From: an uncultured Gemmatimonadales bacterium
Lineage (GTDB): Bacteria; Gemmatimonadota; Gemmatimonadetes; Longimicrobiales; RSA9
Assembly: GCA_963708135.1 (NCBI GenBank)
Contig: OY970192.1
Span: forward strand, 3,328,001 to 3,392,000
Reading direction: 5' to 3'
DNA: 64,000 bases
Made by a program: the position numbers. This document shows positions 45,001 through 51,000 of the stretch, one piece after another. Each line of letters starts with the position of its first letter. Position 1 is the stretch's first letter.

Positions 45001-48000
45001 AGGACGCCGAATGCCACGACGGCATAGGCGGCAGCCACGCGGAACACCTTCCGGCGGCGGAGCTCGGAGATGAAGGACGGCTTGTGGGTCATTGCGAACC
45101 GGATTGGCGTTGGGTCAGCCCTTCGGCGCGGGATCGAACTCCACGACGAGGTGGGAGGGGAACGGTCCGTCCATCTGCAGCGTGCCGTCCGTTCCGGCGG
45201 CCCTCCGCAGGTTGGGCCGGCCGAGGACGGCCTGCGCGATGCGCGGGATCTGCACCATGTTGATATACTGCCCGAAACAGGTGTGCATGCCGTAGCCGAA
45301 GTGCATGTATTCGTGGGCCGGGCGGTCCACCCGGAACTCCTCCGGCGACGGGATGCGGTCGCCGTCGAAGGTGGCCGACTGCAGCACGGCCAGCACCCTG
45401 GTCCCCGCCTTCAGGGTCGTGGCGCGATGCGTGCCCCGGGCGATGGTGTAGTCCGCCAGGACCATGCGCGGGACGCCGGGGCCGAGCGGGTTGAACCGCA
45501 TCGCCTCCGAAACGTAGCTCGCGACGGTGCCGCTGTCGCCCCTGGCCGCGGCGGCGTGCGCCAGCGCGAGCTCGCGGGGCCGGCGCAGCAGCTCGTCGAT
45601 GGCGCGCGCCGCCATGGCCGCGGTGGTCGGAATCGCACCGACGACCAGCCCGAAGAGGTTCACCGCGAGCGTCTCGTCGTCCATCCCCGGCACGCCGGCA
45701 TCCTGGAGCACGAGGCAGCGCTCGAGGACATCGTCGCGCGGGCCGCGCGCCGACTTCCGCGCGGCGATCGAGGCGCGCAGGGCGGTGAGCATCCGGCCGG
45801 CCGCCTGCTGCGCCCCGGCGCGCAGGTTGGCGGCGGAGAGGAAGAGGTAGCCGGAGATCAGCCCGGCCTCCGTGGCGAAGGCGCCGGGCGTGGGGCTGGG
45901 CGTGCCGAAGTAGTCCGCCACGAACTCGCCGGCGACGCGCAGCGCCAGCTCCTGCACCACGTCGATGCGCCCGGGGGCCGCCGCCACGATCGCGTCCGCC
46001 GTCGTGGCGACGAACGGAGCGATGCGAGCCGGGATGTCGTCCCGCCGCACCACGATGCGCATGTTGGAGACGTCGCGCTGGTACTCCGGCGTGTTGCTCA
46101 TCCCCAGGAAGAAGTTCCGCCCACCGGTGAGCTCGGCGAAGTTGTCGGCGTACGGCACCTGGAAGACCGCGTCGCGGGAGAGGACCTCCTGCACGTCCTC
46201 GAACCGGGTGACCAGGGTGAGGTCCTTGATCGTCAGGATCGGCTTCAGCCGGCGCAGCACCGCGAAGATCCGCTCGGGGTGCGCCACCGCCCACGCTTTC
46301 AGGCCGTCCTCGATGTGGTGCAGCTCCGTGCCGAGGGCGCCGAGCTCCTCATCGACGAGGTGGGCGATCTCGTGCGGGAGCGCGGCCGCGTGCCGGCCGA
46401 TCTTCGCCTCGATCGCCTCGATGCGCGAGATGATCGCCTCATGCACGGGGGCACCTCCGGGTGATGGCATTGGCAGGGTGTCGTCGCCGACGCCCGTCTC
46501 GTCGAAGCGGATCAGCCGCGCCTCGAGCACGTCCCGGGCGCGCACCATCCAGCGGAGCGCCGTGATGCTCGGCATGAAGAAGTAGGCGCCGCCGCGCATC
46601 TCGACGAGCTGGGGCAGGCCGAAGCAGACGTGTGGCCGGTGGCCCCCGGGCGCGCTGGCGTCGCCCGGGATCACCATCTTGTCCGAGGCCGCCCGGCTGC
46701 CCATGAGGGGGTCGGTGTCGTTTCCCTGGCTGAACTCGTTTCCGTAGTTGAGCCACTGCTGCAGCACGAACTCGAACTGCTCCTGCAGCGAGGCGCACAG
46801 CGCGACGAAGATCACCCCGTGCTCGCCGGTGTCATCGCCCGGCTCGTCGGCCGGGATCCACCGGCCGTACGGCAGCCCGCGGCGGATGATGCGGCGGCCG
46901 GCGGTCAGCGAGGTGCCGAAGCCGAGGGCATCGCGGGGGTTGGCGCGGCGGATGTGGGAGCCGAGCGGGCAGCGCAGTCCGTCGGGGTCGGCGGCGTAGC
47001 GGAAGTCGATCACGCGGTCGGCGTCCGCCACGATCGATGGATCGGGGTGATCGGGTGACAGGGCGAGGGGCGTCCCGTCGCGCCAGCGCCCGACCATCTT
47101 CGCCGCGAGTCGCTCCGGGCCGCCCGGAACGCGCGCTCCCTCCTCGGCGAGGAACCGCCGGAAGCTGCCCACGTTCTGGTGCAGCTTGGTGTACGCGACG
47201 AAGGTCCCGTTCCTGAACAGGTTGATCGGCGGCGGGGTGTGCGCGATCTCGCCCGCTTCGTTGCGGTGGCCGAGAAGGAACTCGCCCGCCGCGACCGGCT
47301 CCCAACCGCGGTCCGTCGGCTTGCCGCCGCCGGGCCTGGGCGGCAGTCCGGTCGAGGCGATGTGCGGATTCCCGAAGCCGTCCGAGTAGCCGAAGTGCTC
47401 CTTGTTGCTCGGCTTCCCGCCGATGACCAGGGCGCCCGCATCCTGGCTCCCGACCAGTGTGGCGCCACCCGACGTCCGGCGCAGGTCCTCGAGCCAGGCG
47501 ACGCGGGCCGCGAGCGCATCCGGATCCCTCGCGCCGATCATGACGAAGCAGTGCACGGCTTCGTCGCGCCAGAGCGGTTCCCACCTGCTCGGGTCGCTCG
47601 GCCCGACCTCGCCCAGCGTGCGCGCGCGCGCGCGAAATCCCTGCCGGAAGTCGGCGGGGAACGCATTCGAGGGCGTCCGGCGGCAGGCCGAGCGCCTGCA
47701 GCCCGGGGTAGCTGAAGGCGACGTTCACCGTGGAGGCCGGCTTCCCGCCGTCCCATTCCACCGACGTCGTGACCTCGTGGGTGATCGCCTCGACGAGGCT
47801 GCGCGCCTTCGCGGCGTCATCGAACCGCAGGAAGACGTAGCGCGCCACCCTCGAGCGGTAGCCGCGGATGATGTTCCCCTGGATGTCGGCCAGGTCGAGC
47901 CGAAGTTCGCTCATATCGTCCCCGGCGCTGGCGGTGCGGCGCCCTGCAGGTCTTCTGCGAAGGCGCTGAAGGCGCGCTGCAGATCCGCCGCCGGCGCGCC

Positions 48001-51000
48001 CTGATGGTGCCGCAGGAAGTCGATCAGCCGCCGCTGGGTGTCGAGCGCCCGCAGCACGCCCGACAGCGGCGTCGTCGCATACGCGCCGAAGGCGAAGGTC
48101 GAGGTGATCCGGCAGCGGCCCATGTAGCGCCGGAACGCCTCGAGATCGCGCGTTCCCGGAAAGCCGACGCAATGCTCCCAGAGCGCGTCGACCAGGTCGC
48201 CCGCCTTCATCGCCAGGGCCACGAGAAAGGCGGGGAGGTCCCCGTCGAAGTCGGCGGTGAAGACCAGGTACTTCGACCGGAGGTGATCCTCCCTGGCCGG
48301 GATGCCCTGGTTCCGCACGTCGTCCAGCACGACGAAGCGGCACACGTGCAGCGTCGGGATGGCGGCCAGCGGACTCCCGGCGCCCTGCGGGAGCTGTGAG
48401 AGGACGGTGCGGATCGCCGTCGCGTGCACGGACCCGCGGGTGTGGCCCCCGATGATCGGGGAGAGGATCGTGAGGGCGTAGGCCTGGCCGAAGCGATCGG
48501 GCATGGGGCCTCAGGCCGGCGGCGGGGCGGACGGCGTGAGCGTCGGCTCGGTGCTCGCATCGAGGGCCACCGCCACCGCATTCGGGGCCCGTCGTGGACA
48601 GCGACCCCTGGACCGAGGTGACGAAGGCGTAGAACGCGCGCTCGAACTCCTCGGGAGACAGGCCCCGGCTGGCCGGGATGAAGGCGTCCAGCCGCGCCTG
48701 CAGGTCGATCGCGTGACGGATGTCGCTGGTGGTCGCGCCCGGCGTCGCGTTGTAGTAGTAGTCGTTGTCGTACTGGTTCTGCGCGATGTAGGCCAGAAAC
48801 GGCGTGATCGGCCGGGAGCCCGGATAGCTCGTGGACCAGCGCCAGATGTTGTTCATGCCACCGGGGATCACCTCCGAGAAGGCGTCGATGTACTGCTCCC
48901 AGCTGCCGTTGAAGTTGCTGCAGAAGAGGAGGTAGTCGTAGTGGAGCGATTCCTCCGGCTGCGACGGGTCGAGCCGCGGGAAGCGGCCGCGCGGAATGAT
49001 CACCCAGCGGGCGAAATGGATGAACGAGAGGTTGGCCAGGTTCTGCTGGTCCTTCTTCGGCACGCCGAGGCGCCCGATCACGAAAAACACCAGGCGCAGG
49101 AAGACCGTCTTCCACGGCGCCATGGGCGTGGTGTTGGTGATGGCGAAGGCTTTCCCGGCGACATTGGCCATCCGCTGCTCCAACCGTCGGGTGGGAAGCA
49201 CACTCGGGCGACCGCTGACACGCTGCGGCATGGCCCGGCGAGGACTGCCAAGATGCGCCCGGCGGGGCTGTTCGCGGAAGGGTCTTGTGGCTCGGCTCGT
49301 CGCCGTCTCACGTGGGCTCCGCCGGCCGGCGACCGGCGGGCGACCGGCGACGGTTCGCCCCCGTGTGCGTGCGCGTGTGCGTGTGCGGTGGTTCGTGCCG
49401 TGTCTTCACGCCCGGCACGCTTGCGCGACCGGCTTGCGCTCGCGCGCGGCCGCACGCGGGTCGCGCAGGCGCAAAAGGGGGTGCCGAAAAGGGTCGGGGG
49501 CGCGGGGACGGGGACGGGGACGGGGACGGGGACGGGGACGGGCACGGGCACGGGCACGGGCACGGGCACGGGCACGGGGCACGGGGCACGGGCACGGGGG
49601 ACGGGCGCGGGCACACGCTACGCCCGGCACGCTTACGGGCACACGCGTTCGCACACGGGCACACGCACGGGCACTGTCACACCCACACGCATACGCACAC
49701 GGGTTCGCACCTGCACACGCACACGCACACGCACACGGGTCCTATCCCCCGCAGCGAAGAAGAGGTGCTCCATGATATGCCGAATCTGGCGTGGCTGGAC
49801 CACACCGGCCGATTCAGACACGTACGAACGGTTGCTCCGTAGCGAGATCATCGTGGGGATCGCCGAGCGAAACATTCCCGGGTTCCGCCGGATCGATGTG
49901 CTGCGTCGCGATCTGTCGGATGGCAGCGAGTTCACGACGCTGATGTGGTTCGACGATCTCGATGCGGTGCGACTCTTCGCGGGCGAGGATTACGAGGCGG
50001 CCGTCGTGCCACCCGCGGCGCGTCAGGTGCTGGCCAGGTTCGATGAGCGCAGCGCGCATTGCCGCGTTCTGGAGCAGCTCGAGCCGGGCGGAGGATGACG
50101 GCGAGTCCGCGGGCCGCGTGGAATCCTCAGCCCCACCCGCCCGTCCCGAGCGCCCGCACGAGATCGACCAGCGCCGCGTCCGGTTCCTCCTGAAGGCGCC
50201 GCCACGTCACGCGCATCACGCGCAGCCCGGCGGCCATCAGCTCGGCGTCCCGCCGCCGATCCCGCTCGAACGCCAGCTGCGATGAGTGGAACGCGAAGCC
50301 GTCGACTTCGACCACGAGCCGCTGCTTCCTCCACAGGAGATCGACCTGGTGCCCCGCAACCCGGACGTTCACCTCCGGCTCCGGCAGCTTCCCCCGGCGG
50401 ACCAGGTCGAGCAGCCGCTCCTCCGCCTCCGACCGCGTCCGCGCCGGCTCGCCCCGGTCCAGCAGCGCGCGCAGCTCCGGCGATCCCGGCCCGCGCGGGT
50501 GGCGCGCCAGCAGCCTCCGGAGCTCCTGCGGCGTGGTGAGCCGGAGCGCGAGCGCCTCGGCCAGCGCCCGCTCGAGTCCTCGCCCATCCAGCACGCCGGC
50601 AAGGTCGTAGAGGGTGCGGGCGGGAGTGGTGATCGGGATGCCGTCGAGGGTGGTGACCTCGTCGACGCGGAGGGTGGTCACACGGCGGACCAGCAGGCCC
50701 GGCTTTCTCGGGTCGCCTGCGCGTGCCATTACCTCGATCGGCCCGGCGGCAGCCGTGCCCGGGATGCGCCACAGCCGCGCCGCGGTCCCGTGGCTCAGGA
50801 CCGCCGAGGGTCCGCACGCCAGCGCGGCCGCCATCTCCGCCGCGAGCGGCGGCGCCGTCGGTCCCGCCAGGTAGACACCTCGATGCAACGCTCTCAGCCG
50901 CCCCGCCTGAACGCGTCGATCGATCGCATCGGCACTCACGCCTCCGGCCAGCAACTGGCTGCGGGCGACGACCCCGTGCTGCCGCCCGGCCAGCACGGCG

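Follow-up and report, generated by a model that had tools for sequence, protein, structure and literature searches.

P450 BM3/CYP102 and CYP116B are natural bacterial fusions of a cytochrome P450 with a reductase, in which the fused partner frees the enzyme from separate proteins. Organic hydroperoxides are used by the protein 3E4W, and we know of no dioxygenase activity for any dye-decolorizing peroxidase (DyP). In fungal dioxygenase-P450 fusions, as described in the available parts of two sources, a self-sufficient P450 converts the hydroperoxide that comes from the first domain (PMC13049297; PMC5919972). Available passages of further papers describe a coral fusion of a catalase-related allene oxide synthase with a lipoxygenase (PMC3925239), name 3E4W of Mycobacterium avium subsp. 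paratuberculosis a catalase-related peroxidase (PMC13613382), and state that DrDyP is inactive with H2O2 at physiological pH and that its physiological substrate is not known (PMC10820274). Here we report a locus of an uncultured Gemmatimonadales bacterium in which a DyP is fused to a P450, found in a stretch of 64,000 nucleotides (the window). The locus is a three-gene minus-strand operon of paraA, paraB and the DyP-linker-P450 gene (Table 1). A literature search found no published report of this fusion or cassette.

Table 1. Features of the paraA-paraB-DyP-P450 locus; positions refer to the window.
Feature	Position	Strand	Remarks
paraA	48511..49171	-	~219 aa when read through; paralogue of paraB
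paraB (g02866)	47911..48504	-	197 aa; ABM-like ferredoxin fold, then two C-terminal helices
DyP-P450 fusion gene	45115..47914	-	932 aa, one-base break read through with X
DyP domain, C/D-type	46543..47914	-	~aa 1-457; Pfam DyP_N + Dyp_perox_C
Variable linker and helical N-terminal extension of P450	46279..46542	-	~aa 458-545
P450 core	45115..46278	-	Pfam p450; Cys-ligand loop FGYGMHTCFG; ExxR = EAMR; I-helix VGAIPTT
Extra A, apparent frameshift in fusion gene	47666 (contig 3375666)		GAATGC in window, GATGC in run X1
Extra A, breaks paraA 3' end	48581		context CGAATGCG, same as at 47666

The fusion of DyP and P450 is real. As the first-pass annotation had claimed, a single polypeptide begins with a DyP and ends with a complete P450, with the Pfam domains and both motifs it had quoted in place, and its homologue figures were reproduced: 40 full-length clusters of 884-955 aa matched with 40-87% identity over 99-100% of the length, and 39 of them have both DyP and P450 families on record. 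The ATG of the fusion gene at 47914 overlaps the paraB stop (ATGA), and homologue P0003 (932 aa, 87% identical), which scores above the cut-off of TIGR01413, aligns end to end and without gaps with the read-through fusion. The distal Asp in GXXDG, the proximal His in ..SHIRRANPR.. and the Arg pair in ..IIRRGLPYG.. of the DyP are nearly invariant in the alignment of fusion homologues, and the DyP and P450 haem sites both look complete. The linker stretch (~85 aa) is length-variable and poorly conserved in the same alignment. In the full-length model (pTM 0.48), residues 459-540 had low pLDDT and the two domains were not packed against each other with confidence. Stand-alone P450 genes carry the helical extension at their N-terminus too.

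As assembled, the fusion gene is divided between an ORF of 813 aa at 45115-47556(-), with Dyp_perox_C (E 5.8e-6) and p450 (E 5.2e-11), and a stretch at 47650-47914(-) that carries DyP_N (E 1.3e-7) in a different frame. The frame change noted earlier is real in the assembly and was located one base beyond the range first given. Contigs of the public run X1, with a depth of only 3-5 and possibly from the same sample that gave the genome assembly, differed from the window at just two places over 2 kb (47300-49300), where one A was absent at 47666 and one at 48581. When the first A is left out, the two frames become one and the two codons there give Asp-Ala, at a place where the homologues show x-A/G ahead of a conserved F-P; without the second, the paraA frame runs to a TGA at 48511-48513, 6 nt ahead of the paraB ATG. 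Both restored frames match those of the homologues. The first-pass annotation had missed paraA because the break removes its stop codon, and had held sequencing error, pseudogene and recoding to be indistinguishable, a question that the X1 contigs largely settle: both breaks are most likely assembly errors, so that paraA and the fusion gene are most likely intact. A biological break, either a pseudogene in this strain or expression via programmed +1 frameshifting, would account for the extra base in the deposited assembly and could draw on a run of four C that comes after 47666 and on the shallowness of the X1 contigs, but it is highly improbable, given that at both sites the extra base is missing from independent contigs and that all 40 full-length homologues can be read without a shift. 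Moreover, the identical change, an A added within CGATGCG, occurs in two adjacent genes and thus resembles a systematic error more than a pair of mutations, GC3 of the correct frame remains high before and after the break, and the site has neither a stop codon nor a rare codon.

The conserved 197-aa protein of unknown function that had been reported ahead of the fusion is present, but it is not alone: it is one of a pair of paralogues with the ABM fold. Alignments of the paraA and paraB families matched each other with a probability of 99.9% (hhalign, E 4.7e-32); no Pfam or NCBIfam family was found for either, and neither matched Pfam ABM by sequence. In a fold search with the paraB model (pLDDT 83.6), residues 5-140 matched 9lmn_B (Z 9.8, rmsd 2.5 over 106 residues), followed by about 40 further ABM-type entries with Z 5.5-7.9; the match is middling, with the next value at most 7.9, and a likeness of fold does not establish function. 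A heterodimer of paraA and paraB was predicted with a score of 0.91 (best control 0.01); 116 of 157 solved complexes scored at least this high, as did 2 of 215 mismatched pairs. The contacts of the runs agreed to at least 97% and the partners had pLDDT of at least 90, and the two proteins probably form a heterodimer. ParaB has conserved His residues and one invariant Cys, and in many paraA members Glu or Gln takes the place of the candidate His. The best 150 representatives of the paraA family include 36 A-B fusions, two A-B-DyP fusions and seven A-B fusions with a further domain of about 200-300 aa, whose profile matches catalases (E 1.5e-9) and 3e4w (E 2e-9).

The real unit is the cassette paraA-paraB-DyP(-P450). 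Among the 80 genome loci listed, paraB is directly upstream of the DyP in 79 and paraA in 78, and the P450 is absent from 61; the constant partner of this DyP clade is the paraA/paraB pair, not the P450. The 19 P450-bearing genome loci include three single ORFs and 11-12 cases of a separate, adjacent DyP gene. In 80 metagenome loci, chosen by the P450 domain alone, the DyP was fused in two, encoded immediately upstream by its own gene in 55, and placed elsewhere in the locus in five (behind paraA and paraB just downstream in four, on the opposite strand in one); no DyP was seen in the other 18, of which 14 had less than 500 nt of upstream sequence. The P450 is usually its own gene right after the DyP, and the single-ORF fusion, which had been presented as a family of its own, exists as a minority form (2/80 metagenome, 3/19 genome loci) of a wider paraA-paraB-DyP-P450 operon. 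That the fused family is small and almost exclusively metagenomic is borne out by the homologue clusters and locus scans; the cultured planctomycete Neorhodopirellula pilleata Pla100 has a single-ORF fusion of 935 aa. Fused forms occupy at least three clades of the P450 tree, a quick, midpoint-rooted FastTree in which the fused entries had been collected with a fused query. Carriers among the matches listed were mostly soil and peat Acidobacteriota.

The P450 domain matched 73 solved P450 sequences at E<=1e-10 (best 5it1, E 5.2e-19, residues 63-404) and is nearest to CYP105/107-type monooxygenases, not to CYP74, CYP5, CYP8 or CYP152. P261/T262, E302/R305 and H376/C378/F379/G380 do not vary among the 17 P450 domains compared. 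In all of these, including a 30%-identical branch, the I-helix acid, which is required for proton delivery during O2 activation, is replaced by Pro, and the conserved I-helix Thr is kept. The 5.45-Mb genome encodes no other P450, and no ferredoxin or P450-type reductase was found in 74 flanking ORFs of relatives' loci or among the window neighbours; this is weak evidence, since many bacterial P450s are served by ferredoxins encoded elsewhere. Three proteobacterial loci have the order paraA-paraB-DyP-patatin lipase-P450, followed in two by a FadL/TodX channel, and a patatin gene adjoins the cassette in a fourth. Patatin and FadL were restricted to this distant branch (30-34% identity), being absent from the 80 metagenome loci and from the window. 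Of 61 loci of at least 8 kb, 14 have a GST-like gene after the P450, and no conserved polyketide or aromatic-catabolic genes adjoin the cassette.

We propose that the four modules may form one cytoplasmic oxidation machine for a hydrophobic small molecule, which would work via peroxide or radical chemistry rather than activate oxygen with NAD(P)H by way of a ferredoxin and a reductase. The paraA/B heterodimer would bind the substrate, or oxygenate it cofactor-free; an organic (hydro)peroxide or radical intermediate would then pass to the DyP haem and to the P450 as a partner-free peroxide-converting enzyme, and fusion of the two would shorten the hand-over. The anatomy of the locus and the intactness of its genes are highly probable, the explanation as a whole (operon plus oxidation module) is evenly balanced, and the peroxide-coupled, partner-free mechanism is less likely than not. 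The partner-free reading leans on the I-helix Pro, the sole genomic P450, the missing redox partner and the reported inactivity of DrDyP with H2O2 at physiological pH. The patatin, FadL/TodX and GST-like neighbours suggest a hydrophobic or lipid-like substrate, and the separate upstream DyPs together with the fused clades point to a coupling of DyP and P450. DyPs use up peroxide and do not produce it, so the peroxide-coupled mechanism leaves the source of the oxidant unaccounted for; a role of the DyP in peroxide handling on behalf of the P450, as first suggested, is one possible option. Probably intact and placed behind two partner genes, the fusion gene makes the role of DyPs in bacteria open to testing.

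Possible, though unlikely, is that the cassette serves a conventional pathway that tailors or degrades aromatic compounds (phenolic, quinone, anthraquinone-like or humic), in which the P450 would be a normal monooxygenase with ferredoxin and reductase encoded elsewhere, the DyP would oxidise a phenolic product with H2O2, the ABM-like pair would be a cofactor-free quinol/anthrone oxygenase or cyclase, the GST would conjugate quinones or epoxides, and the fusion would merely co-localise consecutive steps. The top structural matches of paraB are aromatic-polyketide ABM types (WhiE-ORFI, Abx(+)O, TcmI, ActVA-Orf6, SnoaB), DyPs prefer anthraquinone dyes, and the GST-like gene and the soil and peat carriers fit such a pathway, as do the CYP105/107-type sequence of the P450 and its retained Thr, two features that also count against a partner-free mechanism. 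Against it stand the invariant Pro in place of the proton-delivering acid, the lack of a redox partner in the loci scanned, the single P450 of the genome, the lack of conserved polyketide or aromatic-catabolic genes beside the cassette, and the patatin and FadL neighbours in one branch, which suggest lipids. It is improbable that the cassette serves haem handling or protection, with paraA/B as IsdG/MhuD-like haem binders or deliverers and the DyP (elsewhere the catalase-like domain) clearing peroxide that is made by an uncoupled P450 or damages it. The fold matches of paraB include the haem-degrading enzymes MhuD and IsdG (Z 6.5 and 5.8), but these rank below the polyketide-type ABM proteins; the His and invariant Cys of paraB would suit haem, but the candidate His of paraA is often replaced. 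Three kinds of haem enzyme (DyP, catalase-related domain, P450) accompany paraA/B, yet 61 of the 80 genome loci listed have no P450 to protect, and a scavenger role leaves several independent DyP-P450 fusions unexplained.

The proposed oxidation module resembles several known systems in part. In BM3/CYP102 and CYP116B, electrons from NAD(P)H are supplied by the fused partner, a flavin or iron-sulphur reductase, whereas here the partner is a second haem enzyme and a nucleotide-binding domain is lacking. Fungal dioxygenase-P450 fusions (linoleate diol, allene oxide and epoxy alcohol synthases; PpoA type) and oomycete CYP5619 share, according to the available parts of the sources, the layout of one polypeptide with a haem peroxidase-type domain at its N-terminus and a P450 at its C-terminus, but the first domain belongs to the peroxidase-cyclooxygenase superfamily rather than to the DyPs, and these systems are eukaryotic and lack paraA/B. 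The coral allene oxide synthase-lipoxygenase, as far as its source was available, likewise joins a peroxide-reactive haem domain to a substrate-supplying module, and the catalase-related domain fused elsewhere to the paraA-paraB family resembles 3E4W; unlike these, the window has a DyP and a P450, and neither a catalase-like domain nor a lipoxygenase. The proposed module would work like the fungal dioxygenase-P450 and the lipoxygenase-allene oxide synthase fusions but consists of unrelated folds, and its likeness to the fungal enzymes is one of analogy, not homology. The nearest solved DyPs are DrDyP of Deinococcus radiodurans (8re3/8re2, E 6e-70 with a stand-alone member), then 7anv, 6fsk, 4w7k, 2d3q, 5c2i and 4g2c; DrDyP and the C/D-type enzymes that rank after it (D-type fungal DyPs, AnaPX, DyP2) have the same catalytic residues and pair of ferredoxin-like domains as this DyP clade but no P450 fusion, and the available part of the DrDyP report makes no mention of paraA/B-type neighbours (PMC10820274). 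With the ABM or dimeric alpha+beta barrel proteins (WhiE-ORFI, ActVA-Orf6, SnoaB, TcmI, IsdG/MhuD), paraB shares the ferredoxin-like fold and the predicted pairing of two such domains. In contrast to these homodimers, paraA and paraB are about 200 aa long with two extra C-terminal helices, form an obligate paralogue pair (a predicted heterodimer) and are always linked to a haem enzyme.

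The window has a G+C content of 72%, and its fusion gene of a dye-decolorizing (DyP-type) peroxidase and a cytochrome P450 is assembled as two pieces in different frames, separated by a one-base break. In an alignment with 20 full-length homologues, one piece takes over exactly where the other stops: the N-terminal one ends with ..LPPDAL, and the second frame picks up at the conserved F-P-x-(D/E)-F-R-Q-G. Read through, with an X at the break, the product has 932 aa, which is also the length of P0003, a metagenome homologue with 87% identity. The abutting pieces and this length bear out the view of the first-pass annotation that both haem enzymes form one polypeptide.

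That annotation had also described the frame break, which is indeed present in the assembly, and had held that sequencing error, pseudogene and recoding could not be told apart; this second part largely falls away. The public soil metagenome run X1 (Logan contigs), which may be the source sample of the genome itself, contains 91% of the words sampled from positions 47300-48700. Five pieces of its contigs, with a depth of only 3-5, cover positions 47300-49300 and show zero substitutions relative to the window and two differences only, one letter missing at each of two sites. Both differences are the same event, an A inserted in CGATGCG to give CGAATGCG, 915 nt apart and in two genes, so that the GAATGC at both sites shares this 8-mer context. 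Without the A in the fusion gene, the two codons read Asp-Ala and the frame runs into F-P-A-D-F, where the homologues have x-A/G-F-P. The second A lies in paraA, the first gene of the cassette paraA-paraB-DyP(-P450), whose frame as assembled runs on for ~1.7 kb without a stop; without it, paraA stops at TGA 48511-48513, 6 bases ahead of the next ATG. Because the insertions in the neighbouring genes are identical, are absent from an independent read assembly, and leave homologue-like frames when deleted, both breaks are very probably errors of this assembly rather than biological. A real break, by pseudogene formation or recoding, is improbable, since a frame shift is required by none of the 40 full-length homologues.

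A general error-proneness of GAATGC was not supported by a genome-wide GC3-phase test of callable sites, in which the phase switched at 15 of 264 sites (5.7%) vs 297 of 7681 random positions (3.9%); for CGAATGCG, 4 of 41 sites switched phase vs a background of ~3-4%. The two errors share their context, yet no genome-wide rule was apparent. The single-contig genome may contain more such artefacts among its apparent frameshifts. In this case, the alignment of an independent run to the locus made it possible to resolve what looked like a frameshift or pseudogene.

Features of the cassette and its surroundings (window coordinates)
Feature	Position	Strand	Remark
Type I restriction-modification HsdM	33381-34874	+	
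Type I restriction-modification HsdR	36074-39196	+	
TPR protein	42681-45092		downstream of the cassette
Fusion gene	47914-45115	-	DyP, linker and P450, read through the break
ORF (813 aa)	45115-47556	-	Pfam Dyp_perox_C and p450
N-terminal piece (88 codons, other frame)	ATG 47914 to ~47650	-	Pfam DyP_N
Extra A in GAATGC	47666		at the fusion-gene break; absent from X1 contig
paraB (197 aa)	48504-47911	-	
Extra A in second GAATGC	48581		3' end of paraA; absent from X1 contig
paraA	49171-48511	-	paralogue of paraB, own one-base break
ORF (531 aa)	48503-50098	+	spurious
Hexamer tandem array (GGGCAC)x19	49498-49614		intergenic, upstream of paraA
Hexamer tandem array (GCACAC)x16	49639-49737		intergenic, upstream of paraA
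108-aa gene	49772-50098	+	divergent from the cassette; weak Pfam ABM match (E 2.7e-4, below cut-off)
AbiEi-like / DUF559 (REase_MTES_1575) protein	50130-51041	-	

Both ferredoxin-like domains that define a DyP-type peroxidase were recognised by family profiles, namely DyP_N on the N-terminal piece (32.3 bits; cut-off 27.5), Dyp_perox_C (26.6 bits; cut-off 20) and, on P0003, TIGR01413 (107.2 bits; cut-off 100.5). The motifs FGYSDGFG (GXXDG), ..SHIRRANPR.. and ..IIRRGLPYG.. are present, and D178, H320, R341, R344 and R345 are nearly invariant in an alignment of 22 rows; we take these residues to include the distal Asp, the distal Arg and the proximal His of DyP structures. Judged by its motifs, the haem site appears complete, with haem b binding and peroxidase activity putative. 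No signal peptide was visible by inspection of the sequence. The best solved match of a stand-alone member of the clade was DrDyP of Deinococcus radiodurans (8re3, E 6e-70), followed by D-type fungal DyPs, AnaPX and DyP2; the clade is therefore of the C/D type, presumably the 'class V' of another naming. DrDyP is reported to have a six-coordinate low-spin haem and to be inactive with H2O2 at physiological pH; the same paper stresses that its physiological substrates are unknown and treats the role of DyP peroxidases in bacteria as an old open question (PMC10820274).

The P450 domain scored 42.4 bits with Pfam p450 (cut-off 22.8) and matched 5it1 at E 5.2e-19 over residues 63-404, nearly the whole P450 fold. 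It has the Cys-ligand loop (FxxGxHxCxG) and the ExxR motif of the P450 superfamily, and H376, C378, F379, G380, E302 and R305 are invariant in an alignment of 17 P450 domains (A4). O2-activating monooxygenases carry an acid-alcohol pair (D/E-T) in the I-helix. This pair is missing here, which is relevant to the reaction type and not to superfamily membership: in the alignment with 5it1, VGAIPTT matches AAHDTT of CYP105, with the acid replaced by Pro and the Thr retained, and all 17 P450 domains, a branch of only 30-34% identity included, have P261 and T262. The best 60 solved matches were of the bacterial CYP105/107/142 type, and CYP74, CYP5A1, CYP8A1 and the fungal LDS/AOS partners were not among them. 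Neither a ferredoxin nor a P450-type reductase gene adjoins the P450 in the window or occurs among 74 flanking ORFs scanned in related loci, and the P450 is the only one in the 5.45-Mb genome (97.65% complete); both points hint indirectly at partner-free turnover of a hydroperoxide or endoperoxide. The AlphaFold model of full-length P0003 (pLDDT 75, pTM 0.48) has a disordered linker and is uninformative about the packing of the haem domains, which does not speak against an interface.

In a word-indexed protein search, 40 clusters of 884-955 aa matched over the full length with 40-87% identity, and 39 of them have both the DyP and the P450 family on record; next came DyPs (~460 aa, 51-60% identity) and P450s (~450 aa, 48-57%) that stand alone. 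A pattern scan of one genome per species yielded at least 80 loci. DyP is present in all 80 genome loci listed, and a P450 of the fusion's family in 19, three of which have a single ORF: a Gemmatimonadales genome (L001), an incomplete copy at a contig end (L054), and the cultured Neorhodopirellula pilleata Pla100 (L058; 935 aa). A separate P450 gene that starts a few bases past the DyP stop was found in 11-12 of the 19; one gene separates DyP and P450 in three, and the P450 lies upstream in one.

Metagenome contigs were scanned with the P450 domain alone (A4) as query, which yielded 80 loci. DyP and P450 are fused in two (L094, L095), and DyP is a separate gene directly upstream of the P450 in 55; in five of the latter inspected by eye, DyP ends with ..VDPR-stop and the P450 begins a few bases on. 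Three others of these 55 (L096, L097, L099) have ambiguous DyP/P450 overlaps. DyP lies elsewhere in the locus in five cases (four with the order P450-paraA-paraB-DyP, and L102 with the cassette on the other strand), and none was seen in 18, of which 14 have less than 500 nt of upstream sequence; L111, L156, L162 and L167 have 910-7000 nt upstream of the P450 without DyP. Given these positions, genes of this P450 family nearly always share an operon with a DyP of this clade, and the fusion is the minority state.

In a quick FastTree of 133 P450 domains (midpoint root; fused rows gathered with the fused query), fused forms occur in at least three well-supported groups, and parsimony gives six changes. 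The window and P0003 fall inside a group of 28 fused rows together with the Gemmatimonadales locus, and a clade of 53 rows consists of split or unknown-state forms only, with all named members from Acidobacteriota. When the same two genes are repeatedly fused, or split, this is a classic sign that their products work jointly.

The conserved 197-aa protein that the first-pass annotation had placed ahead of the fusion, here termed paraB, proved to lie directly upstream of DyP in 79 of the 80 genome loci listed, with or without a P450. It is preceded directly by paraA in 78; the exceptions are L057, which ends with its contig, and L018, which has no tblastn match to the window's proteins and whose ORFs nonetheless fall into the same cluster by ORF clustering. 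The two proteins are paralogues (hhalign probability 99.9%, E 4.7e-32, 23% identity over 183 columns); kinship of paraA to DyP itself was rejected (hhalign probability 0.5%). Pfam and NCBIfam provided no name for either, the ESM Atlas gave 'hypothetical protein' clusters only, and the Pfam ABM profile (PF03992) was not matched at E<=1 by paraA, paraB or the homologue P0125.

The AlphaFold model of paraB (pLDDT 83.6) shows a beta-alpha-beta core of the ferredoxin-like type over residues 5-140 and then two long helices. Its top match in an all-against-all structure search was WhiE-ORFI (9lmn_B; Z 9.8, rmsd 2.5, 106 residues), followed by ~40 ABM or dimeric alpha+beta barrel proteins with Z values of 5.5-7.9, a range that can reflect a common fold and nothing more; these included polyketide oxygenases, cyclases, decarboxylases, YgiN and MhuD/IsdG. 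The predicted complex of paraA with paraB scored 0.91-0.92 over three runs, which share at least 97% of contacts and have partner pLDDT values of at least 90, vs 0.01 for the best of three controls; a mark of 0.91 was attained by 116 of 157 solved complexes and 2 of 215 mismatched pairs. The model supports binding of the two proteins. ABM proteins dimerise in solved structures, and likeness to them may account for part of the score. The predicted fold and pairing place paraA and paraB with the ABM type, and by their sequences they form a family of their own.

Out of 1.84 billion, a paraA profile picked out 2557 representative clusters at E<=0.001, of which 1403 also pass E<=1e-10. The best 150 matches comprise 96 single domains, 36 paraA-paraB tandems in one chain, six chains scored as two paraA-type domains, two paraA-paraB-DyP chains (937 and 964 aa, both with Pfam DyP_N and Dyp_perox_C), seven paraA-paraB chains with an extra 200-300 aa, and three chains arranged otherwise, one of which has an nSTAND NTPase in front. 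The profile of the seven extended chains matched catalases (E 1.5e-9) and the 320-aa chain 3e4w (E 2e-9), which is a catalase-related peroxidase of Mycobacterium avium subsp. paratuberculosis according to PMC13613382. These single chains of 556-643 aa (P0190, P0215, P0217, P0225, P0226, P0231, P0264) consist of paraA, paraB and a catalase-related haem domain, and their conserved R..H and R...Y align to catalases; they are a second type of fusion, so far undescribed, in which the pair is joined to a peroxide-reactive haem enzyme. The fusions provide independent support for the paraA-paraB partnership, and those to DyP and to the catalase-related domain mark the pair as a recurrent partner of peroxide-reactive haem enzymes. 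In P0154 (719 aa), a paraA-type domain stands at the C-terminus of an nSTAND1 / AAA_16 NTPase, which hints at an additional use of such domains as sensor or effector modules.

ORF clustering of the relatives' loci revealed no other universally conserved neighbour of the cassette. Three proteobacterial loci (L010, L060, L069) have the order paraA-paraB-DyP-patatin-like phospholipase-P450, with a FadL/TodX outer-membrane channel next in two, and a patatin gene adjoins the cassette in the actinobacterial L073; neither patatin nor FadL was found in the 80 metagenome loci or in the window. Among 61 loci of at least 8 kb, a GST-like gene (~260 aa) follows the P450 in 14, and Ser/Thr kinases are near the cassette in six. 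In a single acidobacterial case (L035:4884-6569, minus strand), a flavin amine-oxidase-like gene that could be a source of H2O2 is divergent beside the cassette. The downstream TPR protein was rejected as a member of the cassette, with no counterpart in any relative's locus retrieved, and the 108-aa gene, a possible associate of the ABM-fold pair, was not found as a conserved neighbour in other loci. The 531-aa ORF is antisense to paraA plus translated hexamer repeat, and was created by the two hexamer arrays. A promoter and terminator scan gave nothing above chance, and none of the public sequencing runs listed for the locus is of RNA.

Of named relatives, the nearest is a partial protein from Gemmatimonadaceae that falls into one cluster with a homologue of 69% identity. 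The 201 genomes searched from the order of the window yielded neither a fused nor a close homologue, the best matches being separate parts with 36-43% identity; in several genomes of another family of the order (G125:C87, G140:C86, G053:C180, G032:C66 and others), a P450 with 41-43% identity lies ~3-4 kb from a DyP C-terminal-like stretch on the opposite strand, within open frames of 1150-1300 aa, which may be another architecture. The lack of close homologues in the order, the single copy of the fusion in the genome, and the lower G+C content of the cassette (0.69-0.72) than of its flanks (0.75-0.78) suggest that the cassette was laterally acquired. Because of the restriction-modification system, the AbiEi-like protein and the uneven G+C content across 40-53 kb (0.59-0.78), it may be part of a laterally acquired, defence-rich region.

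The data show the anatomy of the locus, its probable intactness, a conserved linkage of its four modules, repeated fusions, haem sites that look complete in both enzymes, and an unusual I-helix. Beyond this, we infer that the modules act together in the cytoplasm as a single machine for the oxidation of a hydrophobic small molecule, with no NAD(P)H redox chain involved. Its chemistry would be that of a peroxide or a radical: binding of the substrate, or its cofactor-free oxygenation, would fall to the paraA/paraB barrel, DyP and P450 would then convert the (hydro)peroxide or radical intermediate, and the fusion of both would shorten the hand-over. A more specific version, in which paraA/paraB are a new cofactor-independent dioxygenase (or radical-relay partner) that turns a lipid-like substrate into an organic hydroperoxide, with DyP, the catalase-related domain and P450 as interchangeable hydroperoxide-converting partners, is speculative and rather unlikely as it stands. 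The main rival of the peroxide or radical machine is a conventional route of aromatic tailoring or degradation with the P450 fed by ferredoxin, a reading that is possible if doubtful; the polyketide enzymes among the structural matches of paraB stand on its side, and the missing ferredoxin gene and I-helix acid on the other. A role in haem handling, for which MhuD/IsdG are among the same matches, or in protection is less likely than the aromatic route and quite improbable; the occurrence of paraA/paraB with several kinds of haem enzyme also speaks for it.

Searches of about 8.4 million open papers and preprints, a coverage that leaves out most subscription journals, turned up no description of a DyP-P450 fusion, the operon or the paraA/paraB family. 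The DyP and P450 families are well known; what is new lies in the architecture, in the conserved cassette and in a partner family with Rosetta-stone fusions. With two ABM-fold proteins and a P450, the cassette provides bacterial DyPs with three constant or frequent partners for co-expression and assay. The P450, which has repeatedly been fused to a peroxidase and has no proton-relay acid of the usual kind, is a candidate catalyst for reductase-free oxidation and of interest for biocatalysis. The paraA/paraB family is large and unnamed, and its fusions to DyP and catalase-related domains suggest a general, undescribed partnership with peroxide-reactive haem enzymes. Should the dioxygenase reading be true, the cassette would represent a bacterial oxylipin-type pathway built from folds unrelated to lipoxygenase and cyclooxygenase, give C/D-type bacterial DyPs a long-sought physiological role, and include a naturally partner-free bacterial P450.

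Among working systems, those most like the cassette are the fusions of a catalase-related allene oxide synthase with a lipoxygenase, and the di-haem enzymes of fungi that join a dioxygenase to a P450; the P450 halves of the latter are self-sufficient according to PMC13049297. Both systems are analogues only, because their N-terminal fold differs: the N-terminal domain of the fungal DOX-CYP enzymes belongs to the peroxidase-cyclooxygenase superfamily, whereas that of the window's protein is a DyP; the protein resembles them in architecture only and is not a member of their family.
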